IMG/VR virus record: IMGVR_UViG_3300043398_000164
Location: 1-53,378 of that record
Length of the DNA: 53,378 nucleotides
Origin: a virus
Taxonomy: Duplodnaviria; Caudoviricetes
Strand: one strand, 5' to 3'
Part shown: positions 1,544-44,507 of the stretch, piece by piece
How the letters are laid out: every line of letters starts with the position of its first letter
How positions within the stretch are numbered: position 1 is the first letter of the stretch
Notes under the pieces: model-generated
Database searches by the model: none
What the model saw: the letters and a program-made list of their open reading frames with translations, nothing else
Told to the model about the DNA's origin: nothing
Position numbers and translations under genes: made by a program

Positions 1544-1978
1544 TCAACTCCAGCCTAAAGCGGCTTTGAAACGGTCGAGCTTCTCGCCCAATTCTAATCG
1601 TTCGTCGAGCTTATTGATCCACTGTTTGCGGGCATTGCAATTGCAGCCAGGAGGAAGTCCCACTGCCGCGCGCACTCCCTGCCATCGCTCTTTGGTAACG
1701 CCCACGGCAGTAAGGGCGGACTCGACACGATCGCCGAGGCGTGTGACGTGTGATGTTCCGCAGACGTGTCCGAGTGGTTCATCGGTCTCCGTAATCGTCG
1801 TCCAGTCGCACGCGCGGCAGCCCCAAATGACCTTGCCTTCCGGCGTGCGGTCGATGATGTAGGTTGATCCCACTTGGCAATTTCGATGTAGTGGACGTTC
1901 ATAATCCCTTGGGAGCGCGTATCCGCAGTGCGTGCATTGGGTTCCTTTTGTCAGCGATGGGAAGATGCAATCGACCAC
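1544..1978 (-). CDS. Cys-rich hypothetical protein (CxxC pairs; LGDRV...GCNCNARKQWIN motif)
   Basis: ORF tightly packed in operon; start uncertain (GTG 1978 chosen). Confidence 0.6.
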   Translation of the reverse strand: MVDCIFPSLTKGTQCTHCGYALPRDYERPLHRNCQVGSTYIIDRTPEGKVIWGCRACDWTTITETDEPLGHVCGTSHVTRLGDRVESALTAVGVTKERWQGVRAAVGLPPGCNCNARKQWINKLDERLELGEKLDRFKAALGWS

Positions 1979-1980
1979 GA

Positions 1981-2556
1981 CTACTGAACTAAGACAGCCC
2001 CTAGAGATGCTACGGGGGTGCAATAACCAACATTAATGACCGCGGCGAGTATTGGATTCAGCATGGCATTGAGCGTTGTCGGAAGCGCGATCGACGTGTA
2101 CCACGTATAGCAAAAACCGCCAACTCGCGCTAACGCCTTGAAGTGCAATATACCGCCCGATGACTCGCAGCCGACCAGGAATCCTAATCCGTCGCAAGTC
2201 GCTAATCCGCACGTTACCGGCGGTGACGGAGGAATGTAGTAGTAGCGATTTGACACGATAGCAAACTGCGGTCCACTTATGCAAAAATTACCAACTGAGA
2301 CGAGCGGGTCGGAGAGTGATGGGGACAGGTTGAATGTTCCAATGAACGCCGTGGCGCAGTTGTCAGGCGGCGTGCAAATTCCGCCGAACGCTGTCCAAAA
2401 TGGTCCGGTGAGTTCGATGTGGTCAACTCCTGCAAAGACTAAATTAGCTTCCGTACAAGTGGCAATTGGCGTATCGCAGGGGCAGGTATCGCAGTTGATG
2501 ATGGCGCCCGTGGCGTCAACGATTGGCTTGCCGGCGGCGTTGACCCAAATACTCAT
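1981..2556 (-). CDS. Cys-rich hypothetical protein, possibly tail-associated
   Basis: 191 aa, abuts neighbours; CDTCPC and further Cys; visibly lower GC. Confidence 0.65.
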   Translation of the reverse strand: MSIWVNAAGKPIVDATGAIINCDTCPCDTPIATCTEANLVFAGVDHIELTGPFWTAFGGICTPPDNCATAFIGTFNLSPSLSDPLVSVGNFCISGPQFAIVSNRYYYIPPSPPVTCGLATCDGLGFLVGCESSGGILHFKALARVGGFCYTWYTSIALPTTLNAMLNPILAAVINVGYCTPVASLGAVLVQ

Positions 2557-3414
2557 CTAGCACTCCGCTTGCGTCACCCATTTAAATACTCCAAAGTCAT
2601 TTTTGAGCCATTGCTCCTGCCCGGCTTCGTAGCCGCTCACTTGCGTCAGGTCCACCGAAATTCCTGCCGAGAAAAGTTCGATGTACGTTCCCGCCTTGCA
2701 TCGCAACTTGCCCGCTGCCCCGGCCACGTCGAACTCCAGGCCCTTGTCCCCTTCGATTTCCACCGCGACAGCGCCGCTGTCGAAGTAAATCCCAGCCCCT
2801 TCCTTGACGCGCAGCTTGCCCGCCGCGCCCGCCACGTCAAACTCCAGCCCCTTGTTGGTTTCGAGTTCCACGTCGATCGTGTCGCCGTCGAAGGCGATGC
2901 CAGCGCCGCCGATTAAGTTTCCCAGGAAGGTTTCCGGGTCAATGTCAATCTGCACCGAGTCGGACCCGGAACTTGTCGTCAGCACAAACCCAACGCCGCC
3001 GATGAGGTTGAGCGTGTCGCCAAACGATTCGGCAACCAAGTCAGTCTGCGGGTTGCCAGTCTGATCGGTAACGTGGATTGTCTTGAACGCCAGCGAGTTG
3101 CAGACGATCAGGCCGCCCGCCGTCGTCATCGTCGTTTCGTCGGCAACCGCTGAGATGACGCCGGCCGTAATGTCGATGCCATCTCCCGCGGTGTACGCGA
3201 CGCCGCCGCCGGCCGCCGAGAGGATTCCGCCTGAACAAACAATCGTCACGTTGTCGATCAGTGGAGTAATCGTCCCCAGCGCCAGTGTAACCGGATCAAT
3301 CCCGCAGCCGGCCGTGTAGGTCGCGCCTGTCACGGTGAGGTTGCTGACGACCGATACGAGCGCGTCAATGCGATCGTCGGGCGAACTACATCCTCGTTTG
3401 GGAACGCCAGCCAT
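2557..3414 (-). CDS. Putative tail fibre protein
   Basis: YTAGDGIDIT-type beta repeats and a tandem ~36-aa duplication containing KGLEFDVAGAAGKLR; follows the nozzle gene. Confidence 0.65.
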   Translation of the reverse strand: MAGVPKRGCSSPDDRIDALVSVVSNLTVTGATYTAGCGIDPVTLALGTITPLIDNVTIVCSGGILSAAGGGVAYTAGDGIDITAGVISAVADETTMTTAGGLIVCNSLAFKTIHVTDQTGNPQTDLVAESFGDTLNLIGGVGFVLTTSSGSDSVQIDIDPETFLGNLIGGAGIAFDGDTIDVELETNKGLEFDVAGAAGKLRVKEGAGIYFDSGAVAVEIEGDKGLEFDVAGAAGKLRCKAGTYIELFSAGISVDLTQVSGYEAGQEQWLKNDFGVFKWVTQAEC

Positions 3415-3416
3415 GC

Positions 3417-4922
3417 TTAACCCTTCTTGCGATTTCCGTCTCCATTAATCGTCAACACGACCTCTTCCGGGCTCCACGCCGCCCCCGACACATCATCCAG
3501 TCGCACGTAGGCCGCCGTGCCATTGACGCGCGGGTTCTCTGTTCCGTTGAACCCGGCCGCCCAATTGGCGCACGTGTAGCTGGCCGTGCCGGACAGCGCG
3601 GCAAACGCCTCTTGCGGACTGTCGCCCACGAAGATGCTCGCCGTCGCCGCCCCCGAACCCTCGGCGAGCGTACCGCAGATTTCCGTGATTTCCGCCTTGC
3701 TGCTGGGTCCGCCTAACGCGATCGGCCCATAGACCAAGTAGCTGTCGATCGTCTCGCTACCGGCGGTGTCGTACTGATAGACGAGTCCGGCGTCGGTCAT
3801 GAGTAACAGCGGGCTGACGGTCGCGCTGCTCTTGTATTTGATGTTGGCTGCCAACTGCATTACCTTGCCGCTGAACGCCATCGGCCAGAAGCTCCCGCCG
3901 TCGCTGAGGAAATAGCGGTAGTACAGGTCAGTCCCGCTCGCCTTGTTGACGATAATGTCCACCGCATCCCACCGCGAACAGTAGCCGAGGCTACACCAGT
4001 CGCCAGCCCCAGGATCAATCCCCTTGAGGTCGTTTGGCAACTGGTTCTGCGAGACAATCACCGGCTCGCTCCCGCACCCTTCCGCCATTGCAAACAACCC
4101 CTGCCGCGTCATGAACATCAGCGTGCCGTTGCCGATATGGCAATGGGCCGATTGCATGAGCGGGCCGACCGGGGCCTTGAGCGGCATGAGTTGCCCGCCC
4201 GCGGCGATGTTGCCGATCAGCAGGTGCATCGAATCGGTTTGACCGATGACCGCGCAGTCGCGGGTGTGCGAGATGAACGACGTGATCGGTTCTTTCACCG
4301 TGAACGCGACGGCCGCCGATTCGTCGGTCTGCGTATAGTCCCAATCGGTCGGCGTTCCGATGCGCGGCGAGTAGACGGTCCAGGGGAAATCACTCGCCCC
4401 GCAGAGATAGAGTCGGTCGCCATGTGTGGCGACGATCCCGCAGTTGGTGGGCGCGGCAATGCCAGCCGTCAGGAGCGAGCCAAGTGCTGCGCCAGCGCCA
4501 GCACCCGCCGGCAAGCTCACGTACAGCGTCGTGCCGCCACTCCGCGCCTGATAGAGCCCTTGAAGGTAGACGGCGCAGGACGAAAACGTGGTCCCCGGCG
4601 CTATCGTAATCATCTCTGTCAGCGTCCACGAACCGCTGGCGTAGTAGATGATGTACGTGCCATTCTCGGTCGTGACCGCGATGCCGCGCCGCAGCGTGCC
4701 GCCGGAGAGATAGGACGCCTCGCAGTAATTGTACGGGGCGCCGATGGTTCCGATCGACGTACCTAGCGGCGGGCGCTGTCCACCACGCTCGCGGCCTGTC
4801 GTGGGATCAACTAGCCACACATTCTGGCAGGAGGGGGTCGTAAATGGCGCTTGCGATTGATAGGCAAACTTGCGACTTAGGCCCCCGGAAGGAAATGTCA
4901 GGGCTTTGGTGCGCTCGGCCAT
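3417..4922 (-). CDS. Putative podovirus tail nozzle / stabilisation protein (beta-propeller-like)
   Basis: 501 aa, beta-rich, with HGDRLYLCG...[14 protein letters not shown] motif; downstream of the adaptor. Confidence 0.6.
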
Positions 4923-12784: not shown

Positions 12785-15625
12785 TCACCACTCGCACGAC
12801 ATGGCATTGGCCTCTTCGCGCCCTGCCGCGTAAATCCGGCTTCCCAAACTCCCCTCGGGGGCCTGATGCAGCCGTTCCCAGTCGGAAATTTGCTGTTGAG
12901 CGGCCATCTTACGGGCATCCAGCGCCCGGACGGCGATGGCCGCCCCGACCGCCCGATCGCCGTGGTTCTCTCCGGCCTCGGAGGCGTCAAACGCCGTGCG
13001 GCTCTTGGGATGCTCGATCTTCCCGCCCACCCCATCGACAAAAATGTACTCGCCGCATTCCAAGATCAGCGGCAAACTGAGGATTTCCACCGCATCGTCG
13101 TTCATGGCGATCATCAGTGGCCGCATCGTCTCGGCCTTATTGCTGTTGTGATACCCAGGCAGCACGCCCGGCTTGGCATACGGCCGAAACTCATCCCCTT
13201 CGGCCTGATAGTAGAGGTTCGGGTAGCCCAGTTCGACGATCTTGGACGTGAAAATCGACCCCGGCAGGGCATTCCGCTCCCAATTGAGCACCGGCCACGT
13301 CAAATCCCCCCCGAACCACGCGCAGATCGCATAGATGTACTCGGCGAAATGGTCCGCATACATGTCGTTGCGCACGACTTCCGCGACCTGCCGCCGCGTG
13401 GACAGGTCAAAGAAGATGGCCGTCGAATTGCTTGAGCCGGAACCCCCCGTTCCGCCGCCCAAGTCACACCCGACGGCCAATCTCAGCCGCGGCGGACGCC
13501 CATCGACCACCGGAACCCATAGGGAAATCGGCCCCCGATCGACAGTTTGCCACGACGAGTCCTTGAGATTCGCCGGATTGGCTTGTAAATCCCCCCGGAC
13601 CATTGGCTCGACGCACCGCGCCTTATATCGCTCAATGGTCGCGGGGTTGAACGGCTTGCCCGACGCCCCGCCAAAGTCCATGTCGTATTCGCGCGACATG
13701 TACTTCGCGTTGTCGCCCGATTCGCGCCACTTACGGTCGTACCAGACGCTCCGCACCCGACCATCCAAAATAAACTCGTAGTCGGGCGGGAACTCATAGT
13801 CATCGAGCTGCTGGACTTTCCCCTTCTTGGCGGTGTATTTGCCAATCCGATGAACCGGATTGTCTTTCCAGTCCAGCGTGTACGTGAGCCACGGGCCGGG
13901 ATTCTCCAGTTTGCGAAAGTGCTCGGTATTCTCATCATTACTGGACGAAATCAGCAGAATTTGATTCGTCGTCGCCAGCAGATTCACAATCGCCTTCGTG
14001 TCGTAGCCCTTCATGAAGAAGCCGGCTTCGTCCAGAAAGAACGACGTGTACCGATCCGAGCGCCCGATATTCTCCGTGGCGCTTTCGGCATACAGCAGCG
14101 CCCCCGTGTCGGGATTCTCCCAGGTATGGGCGGTGACGCGGCGATGCACGTCGGGATTCCACTTCCGGGGGAGCATCCAGCCGGGGAGATTCTTCAAGAG
14201 GAAGTCGAACTTCCACCCCAGCGACCCATGCCGCGCGGGATCGTCCGCCTTCTGCATCGTCTCGCTGCCCATCCCCAGCACGCAGCCATGCTTGCGGAAC
14301 AGCCACGCCCAGCAGTACGCCGCCAGCACCATCCACGACGCGCCCTGCTCGCGACTCTTGCGCTCGACAATGTGCCGCTGGCCAAAGTAATGCTGCAAGC
14401 CAGCAATCAGCGGGTCTTGATGCTCCCACGTATTGAAGGGGATGGCGCCATAGACCGGATTGCCTAACGCATCGGTAATCCCATCCCGCGGCTCGTAAAT
14501 CCAGCAGTTGTGAACCAACAGCGGTTCACCATTTCCGTCGATGACGGTAAAGCAACGATTAGGTCCGCAATTCAAGAGATCGTAGACAACCGCCGTCCGT
14601 GAATCCCCGGAGCAAGTAACCGATCGCCCGTCAGACCCATGCGAATGCGGTATTGAATTGCCGCCTTGGTCACGCCCGCAATCGCCGCCGCTTCGGTCAG
14701 CGTCAACCTGCCGAGCGTCGCGTTGATAATCACATTGCGGCGCGTATTGTTGGCTTGCTCTTTTCTCGTGGCCCAGCGACAGTTCATCGGGTAGTAGCCG
14801 AAGTTGTTGTCGATCCGTTCGAGCGTCAAGCCAGGAGGGCGCTCGCCCATATCTTGGAGGAAATTCTCGAACGTCAGCCACCTCGCACAGACTTCGATTT
14901 CCCTGCCGCCGTAGCGATGATAGCTGGCATTGTTGGGATTGCTGCAACGATCGTGCATCGACATCCAAATCGTATAAATTGATTCCCCTGAGCGGCCGTG
15001 CGTCTTTCTTCCGCCTTGCTTGCATCCCTTGCGACCGCAGCTTTTTTGCTTGCCGCGGCGAAGATTGTCTCCGCTCACAATCCGCTCGTTCCCGCACTCG
15101 CAGCGGCAAAGCCACGCCGCCTGTGTCGTCGTGCGGTAAAACCCCTCGCGCCGAATAACCGTCAGGCAGTCGAACTGGAGCCCGGTCAAGTCGATCACCT
15201 GCGTCTTTCCAGCCATGTTTCGTCCACACTAAATGGTCGTGCGTGAGGTAAATCTTATACGCAAAGATAACAGACTTACGACCCTTGCACAACGCACCGC
15301 CTTGGCTCACCCAGTTCTCGCCGTCCCACACGAGATCATCGCTGGTCACGCACTCGATCGGGACAAGTCCTCGATCTGTCACCACGGGCGTACCGACAGC
15401 AAGGCAGAATGCATTGATGTAAAACAGCAGGTCGGAAGCACACGCTTCCAGAAGAGATTGCTGAAACGCCTTGTCCTCGGCCGCCCGCTCGGCGAGCATG
15501 ACCCGATACTCGAAGTGCGCCAGCGGGTCTTTAGGGACCGTCCCATACCACGGCGCCGCAGCGACCAGGGGATGAATCGTCCCCGGCTCAAACTGCAAAG
15601 TTTCGCCAACCGGCCAATCTCGCAC
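12785..15625 (-). CDS. terL: Terminase large subunit precursor containing an intein
   Basis: Walker A-like RKSREQGASW, Walker B FFLDEAG, nuclease VGCDLGGG and HGDRAVG. Start uncertain (GTG 15625 or TTG 15598). Confidence 0.92.
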   Translation of the reverse strand: MRDWPVGETLQFEPGTIHPLVAAAPWYGTVPKDPLAHFEYRVMLAERAAEDKAFQQSLLEACASDLLFYINAFCLAVGTPVVTDRGLVPIECVTSDDLVWDGENWVSQGGALCKGRKSVIFAYKIYLTHDHLVWTKHGWKDAGDRLDRAPVRLPDGYSARGVLPHDDTGGVALPLRVRERADCERRQSSPRQAKKLRSQGMQARRKKDARPLRGINLYDLDVDARSLQQSQQCQLSSLRRQGNRSLCEVADVREFPPRYGRAPSWLDARTDRQQLRLLPDELSLGHEKRASQQYAPQCDYQRDARQVDADRSGGDCGRDQGGNSIPHSHGSDGRSVTCSGDSRTAVVYDLLNCGPNRCFTVIDGNGEPLLVHNCWIYEPRDGITDALGNPVYGAIPFNTWEHQDPLIAGLQHYFGQRHIVERKSREQGASWMVLAAYCWAWLFRKHGCVLGMGSETMQKADDPARHGSLGWKFDFLLKNLPGWMLPRKWNPDVHRRVTAHTWENPDTGALLYAESATENIGRSDRYTSFFLDEAGFFMKGYDTKAIVNLLATTNQILLISSSNDENTEHFRKLENPGPWLTYTLDWKDNPVHRIGKYTAKKGKVQQLDDYEFPPDYEFILDGRVRSVWYDRKWRESGDNAKYMSREYDMDFGGASGKPFNPATIERYKARCVEPMVRGDLQANPANLKDSSWQTVDRGPISLWVPVVDGRPPRLRLAVGCDLGGGTGGSGSSNSTAIFFDLSTRRQVAEVVRNDMYADHFAEYIYAICAWFGGDLTWPVLNWERNALPGSIFTSKIVELGYPNLYYQAEGDEFRPYAKPGVLPGYHNSNKAETMRPLMIAMNDDAVEILSLPLILECGEYIFVDGVGGKIEHPKSRTAFDASEAGENHGDRAVGAAIAVRALDARKMAAQQQISDWERLHQAPEGSLGSRIYAAGREEANAMSCEW
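14507..15406 (-). mobile_element. Intein, 300 aa, in TerL
   Basis: Block A CLAVGTPVVTDRG, block B LTHDH, block F VYDLLNCGPNRCFTV, block G LVHN followed by Cys+1. Splicing restores INAF|CWIYEPR. Confidence 0.92.
14572..15216 (-). CDS. HNH-type homing endonuclease nested in an alternative frame within the intein
   Basis: IDLTGLQFDCLTV..WLCRCECG..SCG..HG..WMSMHDRC..YGGREIEVCARW..LERIDNNFGYYPMNCRWAT; own ATG and TGA, offset +1 from the intein frame. Confidence 0.9.
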   Translation of the reverse strand: MAGKTQVIDLTGLQFDCLTVIRREGFYRTTTQAAWLCRCECGNERIVSGDNLRRGKQKSCGRKGCKQGGRKTHGRSGESIYTIWMSMHDRCSNPNNASYHRYGGREIEVCARWLTFENFLQDMGERPPGLTLERIDNNFGYYPMNCRWATRKEQANNTRRNVIINATLGRLTLTEAAAIAGVTKAAIQYRIRMGLTGDRLLAPGIHGRRLSTIS

Positions 15626-15648
15626 AAACCACCCAGTGGCAACCGCTC

Positions 15649-15984
15649 CTAGGCCGGCATTGTAACAGGCCAGCACAGCGAAACGGCAGGTCCATCCGGC
15701 GAGCCGCATGGATGCTCGCAAAAAGTCAGACCGTACCAAGATTTCGCCCGCCCCACGTCTCCGTCCACCGGCTCCCTGTAGCAATTGAATAAATCCGTCA
15801 GCGAGTCAACAAGACCGCTGCAAAGATGCAGCGTTCGGTCGCCGACGCGAATCACCGCCGGACGACCGCACCGCTCGCACACCAATCGCGTCTCCAATTC
15901 CTCAACATGACCCCAACCGGCCTTGTCAATCAGAAACGACACATGGCACAGCTCAATGTGCGAAATCTCCTGACTACTTGGCAT
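15649..15984 (-). CDS. Cys-rich hypothetical protein
   Basis: ORF between the TerS candidate and TerL; CERCG motif. Confidence 0.55.
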   Translation of the reverse strand: MPSSQEISHIELCHVSFLIDKAGWGHVEELETRLVCERCGRPAVIRVGDRTLHLCSGLVDSLTDLFNCYREPVDGDVGRAKSWYGLTFCEHPCGSPDGPAVSLCWPVTMPA

Positions 15985-24953: not shown

Positions 24954-25271
24954 ATGAGCACCGGATTCCCCGCGAACTTCTCCAACTACCCGCCAGGCGT
25001 CACGCACGAGCCGAACGACGGATACGACTCGCTCTGTGCTGACATTGAAGCGGCGATTACGTACGCCATTCGCCGAGCCGTGATGGGGTCCGGCGTCAAG
25101 CTCGCCGGTCAGATCGTGCAGGTGGAGCGCGTCGAGACCGTTCCGTTCTGCGACCGCAAGGAGATTATGGTCCGGCCGTGTTTCGTGTTGACGCGAGACG
25201 GCGGCGACCTGGACGAGATTGTGGCGCACGTCGGGTGTGCGTTGGCGGAAGTGTTTTCTCGCGTTCAGTAG
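24954..25271 (+). CDS. Hypothetical protein (SNYPPGV motif)
   Basis: GAGG RBS. Confidence 0.7.
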   Translation: MSTGFPANFSNYPPGVTHEPNDGYDSLCADIEAAITYAIRRAVMGSGVKLAGQIVQVERVETVPFCDRKEIMVRPCFVLTRDGGDLDEIVAHVGCALAEVFSRVQ

Positions 25272-25288
25272 GTCGAAGGATCATCTCA

Positions 25289-25921
25289 ATGGAAGCGTGT
25301 CTTAGCAAGGTTTGTATTTCATGCAAGCAATTACTTCCATTTGAAGAGTTCGGAAATGCCTCGAACAATAAGAACGGAAAGAAGGGTTCGTGCAAGGAGT
25401 GTTCACGCAAGCGATTGAAAGCGTGGTGCCAGAAGAACAGGGATTACTACAACAGAAGGCAGCGTGAATATCGTGAAAGGCGACGACAGGAAGGGAATCC
25501 AGTTAAGGGCAGATACATTCAGTCGATTTGGTGGGCAATGGTATCTAGATGCCACAACCCAAAAGACAAATGGTTCAAGGACTATGGAGGCAGGGGCATT
25601 GTTGTTTGCGATCGGTGGCGGAATTCTTCAGCAGACTTTGAGTCTGACATGGGGCCGCGTCCTACCAGTAAGCACTCTATCGACCGCATTGATAACGACG
25701 GTAACTACGAACCCGGCAACTGTCGGTGGGCGACTGAGTTTCAGCAAAAGCGCAACACTAGAAAAACGGTGATGCTTACTTATGGCGGCATAACGATGTG
25801 CCAATTGGATTGGGCTAAAAAGGTTGGCATGTCCAACGCAGCACTGATACGAAGGCTGCGGCGAATGTCGGTTGAGATGGCCCTGACAATCCCACCTAAA
25901 CGCACCAAGGTGCAGCGATGA
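25289..25921 (+). CDS. Free-standing HNH homing endonuclease
   Basis: N-terminal CxxC..CxxC; WWAMVSRC..YGGRGIVVCDRW..SIDRIDNDGNYEPGNCRWAT; AT-richer than flanks. Confidence 0.9.
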   Translation: MEACLSKVCISCKQLLPFEEFGNASNNKNGKKGSCKECSRKRLKAWCQKNRDYYNRRQREYRERRRQEGNPVKGRYIQSIWWAMVSRCHNPKDKWFKDYGGRGIVVCDRWRNSSADFESDMGPRPTSKHSIDRIDNDGNYEPGNCRWATEFQQKRNTRKTVMLTYGGITMCQLDWAKKVGMSNAALIRRLRRMSVEMALTIPPKRTKVQR

Positions 25922-43204: not shown

Positions 43205-43876
43205 ATGGCCATTGCTCACGTAATTTCGACAAGCGCGGCCGGAGCTGATAGTGCGACGGTCACGACGAGCGCCGTAGACACGACAGGCGCGAATCTGATT
43301 GTACTGGCGGTGGCGCGCTATCAGGGCGGAACTGGAGTAACAGTTTCGGACAGCAAAGGCAATACGTGGACCGCGCTCACTGACCACCCGACCGCCACTG
43401 ATCCGGCTATCCGGCTTTATTACTGTCTCGCTCCAACTGTTGGAAGCGGTCACACGTTTCAGATGTCGGGAACGGGAGTGTACCCGTCCGTTTCCATGTC
43501 CGCCTTCAGCGGCGCAAGTGCTTACGACAGTCAGCAAAACGGCAACGCCAGCGACTCAAGCGCCACGTCGGGGCAGCCCGGTTCGATCACGCCGTCAGAA
43601 AATAATTGCGTTGCCGTAACGGGCGCCGTGACAAACGGCACATCATTAGTTGTAGATGGCGATTATAGCGCCCATGCGACTGTTTCCTCCCCTGGCGCCG
43701 GCTATACCAGCGGCATCGCCTATTCAATTCAGACCACGGCTGCGGCTACAAATCCAACGTGGTCTTGGACTGGCGGCAGCTCACATGCCGAGGCGATTGC
43801 CAGTTTTCGGGCTACCGCCGGCGGTTCCGTATTCACCCCCTACTTCTACCGCACGCATGTTGCGAGGCAGCCTTAG
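43205..43876 (+). CDS. Ser/Thr/Ala-rich beta protein, putative virion-surface protein
   Basis: [23 protein letters not shown] pattern. Confidence 0.7.
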
Positions 43877-44496
43877 TGATTATTTCGCTGCGACCAACTG
43901 TATTTAGCGGCGCAACTTGTGGAGCAAGTTGCCTGGGTGCTTTTCTGCCTTGCGGGAACAAACTCTTGTCCGCAATTGGCGCATCGGCGCGTATTTTCCG
44001 AAACAAACTTTTCGCGTTTGCCGGCGAAATAACACGCCCTATTACAGTGAATTTGTTCCTTGTATCCGGCATGGCGCACAAACATTACCCCGCAGATAGG
44101 ACACTTTTGCGGCTTGAGCCGTCGTTCTGGATGCGGTCGCTTTCCTTGTGCCTTAAGTCTCGCAACAAGCTCTCTTTTCCATTTAGCCCTAGCCGTTGGC
44201 GAAAGGTAAAAGCCAATCGGCGCGCGGTTCTTAGCCTGTTCGGCCCTTGTCGCCCAGCGGCAATTATCGGGACTGTAGCCAAGGTCATTGTCAATCCTTT
44301 CCAGCGTCATTCCGTCTGGCCGTGGAGACATATCCTCAACGAACGAAGCGACGGAATCCATCCATCGCTGACATACAGAAATGCCGCGCCCGCCATACCA
44401 GCGGTAATACGGATGCTCCTTGTCCGTACATCGCCTGCGCATCTGATCCCAGATTTTGTAAAGCGGGTGCCTGGAAAGCCCATGAGTCTTTTTCAT
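43873..44496 (-). CDS. Free-standing HNH homing endonuclease inserted antisense
   Basis: [50 protein letters not shown] plus C-terminal CxxC..CSxxC repeats. Confidence 0.9.
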
Positions 44497-44507
44497 AGGA
44501 CAATTCT

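Follow-up and report, generated by a model that had tools for sequence, protein, structure and literature searches.

The large terminase (TerL) gene of the viral record IMGVR_UViG_3300043398_000164 (Duplodnaviria; Caudoviricetes) carries an intein, and the middle of this intein also encodes, in the +1 reading frame, a complete gene for an HNH-like endonuclease. We analyzed the whole 53,378-bp record, which has direct terminal repeats and is called the window below. It is very probable that the element is a class-1 intein that is mobile and has the essential TerL gene as its host, and that its homing endonuclease is an independent +1 gene overlapping the intein middle and not a domain of the intein. 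Ribosomes in the TerL frame would make the N-extein, the Hint N-lobe, a disordered linker of ~185 aa, the Hint C-lobe and the C-extein. The Hint lobes would dock across the disordered tether and then splice TerL at INAF/CWIYEPR (slashes mark junctions here and below). Separate initiation at ATG 15216 on the same mRNA would yield a 214-aa HNH-like nuclease. This nuclease would cut intein-less TerL alleles in co-infection, and repair would copy the whole cassette.

The intein in TerL and the gene nested in it

The 300-codon TerL insert with canonical splicing blocks that the original prediction described is present, at exactly 14507–15406. Its boundaries are exact, because two related TerL proteins lack precisely this insert. 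These relatives read straight across the FINAF/CWI-type junction, with FFINAF/CWIDEPR in L001 and FYINSF/CFIYEPR in P0002, which is 84% identical to the window TerL. The window open reading frame (ORF) reads ...FYINAF/CLAVGTPVV...LTHDH...VVYDLLNCGPNRCFTV...PLLVHN/CWIYEPR or, at greater length, ...LLFYINAF/CLAVGTPVVTDRG...YLTHDHLVWT...AVVYDLLNCGPNRCFTVIDGNGEPLLVHN/CWIYEPR.... The nucleophiles are C1 (CLAVG) and the Cys at position +1 (CWIYEPR). C1 is invariant among 54 homologues, as are T55 and H58 of block B (T55-x-x-H58, LTHDH) and N300 of the C-terminal H299-N300 pair, while H299 is kept in at least 90% of them. Block F is represented by D276, N279, G281 and F286. Since the blocks are intact and TerL is essential, we infer that the intein splices. 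It is not a split intein, as the host gene is unbroken and a single ORF runs through the whole intein. The true start of TerL is probably GTG 15625, because P0002 (647 aa) begins at the aligned position; the precursor would then have 946 aa and the spliced protein 646 aa. The motif KSREQGAS, about 50 residues downstream of the insertion site, is what we take to be the P-loop, and on this basis the intein lies upstream of Walker A. The source gene call for TerL (P0001, 12785–14575, minus strand) has 596 aa, of which the first 23 are the end of the intein. P0001 begins inside the intein, so the automatic annotation truncated TerL at the overlap.

The nested gene also has the predicted form, a complete 214-aa ORF in the +1 frame with its ATG after block B and its TGA (14574–14572) in block F, within the codons for L-L-N. 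The third frame has 12 stops across this ORF. The protein aligns end to end with ~200-aa proteins from 162 virus-contig stretches. In all 97 family loci with a full-length intein, window counted, the HNH homology begins with a start codon (ATG 53, GTG 32, TTG 12; median distance 0 codons). Of 13 loci listed for this feature, 12 share an ATG placed 190 nt from C1, and several relatives have a GAGGA-like motif 7–11 nt upstream of the nested start. The same phage has two free-standing HNH-like paralogues, at 25049–25921 on the plus strand and at 43873–44505 on the minus strand, with neighboring frames closed. They may be related to the nested copy or be its source.

Structure models were built with AlphaFold on 54-sequence alignments. 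The nested protein is modeled with a mean pLDDT (the score predicted for the local distance difference test) of 90.2. In the model it has an N-terminal Cys-rich β domain, a ββα core at residues ~79–160 and a C-terminal helix-turn-helix at ~163–201, and the model includes strands 131–134 and 146–149 and helix 151–156. A search of the PDB with the HNH profile aligned I-HmuI on the HNH motif with a weak E of 0.021. In this alignment N145 and N157, invariant in the 54 sequences, match the N...N of I-HmuI, and the invariant R134 matches the catalytic His of its 'DH' motif. Y141 is also invariant and sits in the loop between the two strands. In the intein-frame model the lobes reach pLDDT 95–98 (residues 1–80) and 95–96 (C-lobe), while residues 86–268 have values of 44–57 and no secondary structure. 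Top Foldseek rows for the lobes are the mini-inteins DnaX, DnaB, gp41-1 and RecA (probability 1.00, E from 1.8e-3). Coordinates are given in Table 1.

Table 1. Features of the TerL locus in the window
Feature	Position	Strand	Remarks
Large terminase (TerL) precursor ORF	12785–15784	−	999 codons from first TTG; match to PHROG 2, terminase large subunit (phrog_2, E 1.1e-15)
N-extein, ~73 aa, ending ...LLFYINAF	15407–15625	−	from empty-site relatives
Class-1 intein, exactly 300 codons	14507–15406	−	splicing residues; insert missing from L001 and P0002
Intein N-terminal splicing lobe, residues 1–85, blocks A and B	15152–15406	−	model, β-rich
Nested HNH-like (His-Me finger) endonuclease gene, +1 frame, 214 aa and TGA	14572–15216	−	match to PHROG 374, 'HNH endonuclease' (phrog_374, E 2.8e-62)
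ATG start of the HNH ORF	15214–15216	−	four codons past a TAG in the +1 frame; within intein His-Gly codons just after block B
Intein-frame linker, residues 86–269	14600–15151	−	−1-frame read-through of the HNH gene; predicted disordered
Intein C-terminal splicing lobe, residues 270–300, blocks F and G	14507–14599	−	model, three β strands
C-extein, 573 aa and stop, from the +1 Cys (CWIYEPR)	12785–14506	−	homologue alignment

Family census and selection on the two frames

A stop appears in the intein frame where an HNH codon ends in T and the next codon (a risk codon) starts with AA, AG or GA. In the window T precedes none of 48 risk codons (C 31, A 9, G 8), against 37 of 166 other codons. When synonymous codons of the HNH ORF are permuted, 9.6 stops arise on average, and not one of 20,000 such shuffles is stop-free. 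Sampling the ORF from the extein codon usage gives 10.1 stops and again nothing stop-free. The exteins' own equivalent frame is a harsher control; it has 17 stops per 700 codons, which by our own arithmetic leaves a chance of ~0.5%. The open intein frame in the window is non-random. Nor do compensating indel errors account for it: two Logan assemblies from the probable source sample match the record over 14300–15700 with 0 differences and 0 gaps at 25–30x depth.

The layout is shared by a large family. A protein search with TerL found 77 proteins. Of these, 19 have an insert whose alignment spans the 300 intein residues in full, 'junk' middle included. Such inserts occupy several different TerL sites, and related, less completely aligned inserts occur in DNA polymerases. 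With the intein or a six-sequence intein alignment as query, 112 DNA loci were fetched, namely 19 from IMG/VR, 80 from metagenomes (out of at least 346 confirmed relatives) and 13 from genomes, the last including complete Gardnerella chromosomes, Acidaminococcus and Clostridiales. The intein matches at full length in 96 of the 112. In every one of the 96 an HNH homologue lies in the +1 frame; none is in frame and none is in +2. With the window included, 97 of 97 loci have no stop in the intein frame from one end of the intein to the other, at GC contents of 41–65%. Ranking by intein-frame match favors the +1 layout, so the 16 partial matches were examined singly. Four have the full-length layout (+1 verified in L104, L105 and L199; L197 is near-identical) and seven are mini-inteins without the middle (L106, L108–L111, L171 and L201). 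L200 (2501–3060) has lost the catalytic portion of its nested gene to an internal deletion, and both frames are still open. L203 (2855–3760) is a DNA-polymerase intein with a related nuclease in the +2 frame, and two are fragments. The polymerase intein of Jerseyvirus jersey (L207, MT588083.1, 2001–3000) has a related HNH-like ORF in +2 as well. The N-lobe of the window intein is matched by ~140 Salmonella phage records, of which one was examined. Four Caulobacter phages match the intein at full length; in GB2A, the one examined, the HNH frame is +1 and the nested gene is unannotated.

Several proteins carry more than one insert. P0005 (1601 aa) is a TerL with two inteins of the window's family and, as its third insert, one that contains a LAGLIDADG domain (PF14528). 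P0024 (1192 aa) is a TerL with two inteins and P0066 (1293 aa) a DNA polymerase A (PolA) with two inteins.

HNH relatives fetched as free-standing serve as the control. The 80 genes have on average 14.5 stops in the corresponding frame. Only L066 and L067 have none, and these are really nested in a different TerL intein, so that every one of the 78 truly free-standing HNH genes is interrupted by stops there. Among 3689 risk codons of 76 distinct nested genes none follows a T, against 27% of 4283 in the 78 free-standing ones. The L066/L067 locus (1917–4682) belongs to another terminase family and has another intein (CLTPDTRV...VLTHN/C), with a +1 HNH homologue in its middle.

Substitutions were counted in 29 sequences, grouped by close relationship into 10 clusters (at least 75% nucleotide identity). 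Inside the overlap, biallelic sites fall on HNH codon positions 1, 2 and 3 in numbers of 84, 65 and 211; in the splicing lobes the corresponding numbers by intein codon position are 61, 37 and 146. Changes that are synonymous for HNH and nonsynonymous for the intein account for 206 of the 360 in the overlap, compared with 18% of possible changes, and the reverse kind (intein-synonymous, HNH-nonsynonymous) numbers 52, compared with 20.5% of possible changes. Crude ω is ~0.18 for the HNH frame and ~1.5 for the intein-frame linker. Mean pairwise identity is 0.21 for the linker and 0.41 for HNH. Against its nearest relatives the window has an identity of 0.43–0.64 in the HNH frame, 0.25–0.41 in the intein frame of the same DNA and 0.54–0.80 in the splicing lobes. 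Purifying selection on the nuclease protein and strict selection against stops in the intein frame are both shown. The linker is unconstrained save for the absence of stops. The suggestion in the original prediction that selection keeps the intein frame open is therefore borne out, by 97 of 97 open frames against 78 of 78 free-standing genes with stops and by substitutions that track the HNH codon phase.

The +1 register has a particular property. Its stops always arise from NNT followed by AA, AG or GA, and a change from NNT to NNC erases each of them. This change is always synonymous, so the ban on stops is free of cost to the nuclease. In the other register a TGA cannot be avoided wherever the residue after a Met is Ile, Met, Thr, Asn or Lys; of the free-standing relatives, 76% contain one or more pairs of this kind. 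Cost-free stop removal may explain why the +1 register prevails, and descent from few founders would explain it too.

Mobility of the cassette and alternative explanations

The cassette of intein and HNH gene is found in TerL (at least four junction types), in PolA (several junctions, two motifs) and in a DNA helicase. Examples come from freshwater and other metagenomic phages, from APSE of aphid symbionts, from Caulobacter phages and from Gardnerella prophages. Distances between HNH proteins correlate with distances between splicing lobes (Mantel r 0.63; 0 of 2000 permutations), which indicates that the two travel together. The cassette is old and moves between genes as a unit. It was proposed that a free-standing HNH gene had invaded a mini-intein. 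The separate, complete +1 gene is there, but no such invasion took place in this TerL. Intein and HNH form an old, co-diverging unit, which is present at many sites and whose host genes are of three kinds.

We built an unrooted HNH tree with FastTree from 132 rows, after dropping rows shorter than 140 aa or with stops. The nested state needs 4 changes on this tree, compared with 44 under shuffling, and at least two are forced by well-supported branches. Because the tree is unrooted, a single origin and the direction (invasion or escape) are not decided by it. L109 (3579–4163) has a PolA mini-intein, and a free-standing HNH homologue lies ~0.7 kb downstream of it, shortly after the end of the polymerase gene; this may be an escaped or a pre-nesting state. 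L019 (3001–3585), labeled free-standing, falls inside a nested clade; over its HNH region the intein frame gives a weak match (E 3e-8) and contains stops, and the locus may be a decayed nested copy.

The cassette is sporadic as well as widespread, and the missing intein in the 84%-identical TerL suggests that it was gained or lost recently. In nine loci the HNH frame is broken and the intein frame still open. Together with the mini-inteins and the internal deletion, they fit the usual homing cycle of invasion and decay. A broader reading, which we put forward tentatively and at somewhat below an even chance, is that nesting is an old and stable coexistence of intein and nuclease. One cassette would have spread across the TerL, polymerase and helicase genes of phages of diverse hosts, and +1 would prevail as the sole register in which all host-frame stops are synonymously erasable, with the sister lineage of the Jerseyvirus polymerase intein using the costlier +2.

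Several points weigh against the explanation given at the outset. When TerL, the intein and the HNH ORF were scanned against Pfam and NCBIfam, nothing matched at E ≤ 0.1 and E ≤ 1; the nuclease is thus unrecognized by both, and its family match is the one to PHROG 374. Foldseek against the PDB returned nothing at E ≤ 0.001 for the HNH model, with I-HmuI at rank 23 (probability 0.15). The best match in VIA-align is PacI (3m7k), which is weak (Z 6.2, root-mean-square deviation 2.4, 76 residues). No His is invariant among the 54 nuclease sequences and the canonical general-base His is absent. The nuclease is an HNH with qualifications: the invariant Asn residues agree with the motif, and the catalytic His is replaced by an invariant Arg in a protein with PacI as its best fold match. 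The motif before ATG 15216 in the window (GTGGAC) is weakly Shine-Dalgarno-like, and a consensus scan, which carries little weight, detected nothing promoter-like upstream of this ATG on the minus strand. The ω values are crude, with sites pooled over clusters and no transition/transversion model. No relative with at least 75% nucleotide identity to the window's own intein was found, so ω comes from other family members and excludes the window copy. The record is matched exactly by three fragments of an independent study where they overlap it, and 14676–15380 is outside their cover. Function is what we infer at three steps, namely that TerL is spliced, that the nested ORF is translated and that its product cuts DNA.

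Some of these points lend themselves to another explanation, in which the nested gene here is an inactive relic and the intein persists by vertical inheritance, in effect a mini-intein whose spacer is long. The weak start signal and the missing catalytic His would suit it, as would the nine related loci with broken HNH but open intein frames and the mini-intein derivatives known in the family. We regard it as unlikely. The window ORF is full-length and has all columns that are invariant in the 54-sequence alignment, its model is confident, the HNH frame is under purifying selection across the family, and the closely related intein-less TerL points to recent gain or loss.

It is very unlikely that the HNH-like protein was recruited for a phage function other than homing, for example as a packaging nuclease associated with the terminase. 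Many phages encode an HNH endonuclease beside their terminase genes, according to the available part of PMC3592412, and the present gene lies inside TerL itself. However, the cassette is also found in genes for DNA polymerase A and helicase, its presence in close TerL relatives is sporadic, and in some lineages it decays, all of which is typical of a selfish element. Slightly less probable still is programmed frameshifting, by which the HNH nuclease would come fused to the N-extein and the Hint N-lobe. It was raised merely since both frames share one mRNA, and we found no evidence in its support; the HNH frame is closed by the TAG four codons before the ATG, and the start codon stands where the HNH homology starts throughout the 97 loci. 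An artefact of two compensating indels that hide an in-frame HNH intein, or a chance product of the 60% GC of the window, where long spurious ORFs are common, is refuted on present data by the stop-free count of zero in 20,000 shuffles, by 96 independent loci in the same +1 register (some at 41–45% GC), by the family-typical N-terminus and own ATG of the HNH gene four codons past a stop, and by re-assemblies identical to the record.

Significance and comparison with known systems

Co-inheritance of a splicing element with a nuclease gene can last a long time without the two becoming fused, and this bears on the view of 'splicing first, nuclease later'. The hundreds of loci are a large natural data set for selection on overlapping frames. 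Gene callers mishandle nested loci, as with the truncated TerL of P0001, the unannotated nested gene of the Caulobacter phage and the short P46 of APSE-1. For protein engineering, the inteins of this family appear to tolerate a disordered linker of ~185 residues between their lobes, and the compact nuclease may be site-specific.

The novelty of the layout was overrated in the original prediction. Inteins of actinophages with endonucleases in a separate frame or on the other strand are reported by Gosselin, Arsenault and Gogarten (bioRxiv 10.1101/2025.01.02.630785), and the P45/P46 pair of APSE-1 is annotated in GenBank. In the available text of the preprint the layouts are an endonuclease VII-like gene in frame 3, an antisense LAGLIDADG gene and an antisense VSR-like gene. 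They are called rare there (63 of 784 inteins), and its HNH inteins are in frame. A literature search for an out-of-frame HNH in an intein, with most subscription journals and supplements outside its coverage, returned two Gogarten-lab papers and no account of the +1 HNH family. The kind of layout is thus already in print, and the +1 HNH family is a large, widespread new lineage.

As far as the preprint text available goes, the actinophage inteins resemble the window intein in having a splicing domain in the host frame, an unstructured in-frame middle and a nuclease read in a different frame or from the opposite strand. Both have TerL and DNA polymerase among their host genes, and the authors propose an origin by invasion of a free-standing endonuclease gene, as the original prediction did here. 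Unlike those cases, the window family is PHROG-374 HNH-like, uses frame 2 (+1), occurs outside actinophages and has at least 346 metagenomic relatives.

Two other systems share part of the arrangement, to the extent that their available texts describe it. The ShiLan domain of a phage methylase (PMC11855218) has an out-of-frame HNH in a stop-free insert of the host frame, as here, and raises the same question of translation as the nested HNH of the window. By its authors' account the ShiLan insert has no detectable splicing domain and is presumably retained in the protein, whereas here intein blocks flank the overlap. In fractured genes (Dassa et al. 2009, PMC2677866) a free-standing endonuclease gene stands in place of the intein endonuclease domain, as here, but the host is in two ORFs joined by trans-splicing, while the window TerL is one continuous ORF.

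At the level of the nuclease, PacI lacks a catalytic His and uses a Tyr in the inter-strand loop (PMC5714182, available part). Like PacI (3m7k), the nested nuclease lacks this His and has a Tyr, the invariant Y141, in that loop, and by this analogy Y141 may have a catalytic role. PacI is a restriction enzyme and not a homing enzyme, and the similarity of the nested nuclease to PacI and to I-HmuI (1u3e) is weak.

The APSE-1 DNA polymerase P45 (NC_000935.1 / AF157835.1) carries an intein of the same family as that of the window, with 30.7% identity over 300 aa and an HNH in +1. Its P46 is annotated as 'HNH endonuclease' inside P45, and the host is DNA polymerase A and not TerL as here. P46 (L205, 1721–2353) is annotated with 141 aa; from an upstream ATG (MHHRAKD...) the +1 frame has ~230 aa, the full length of the family.

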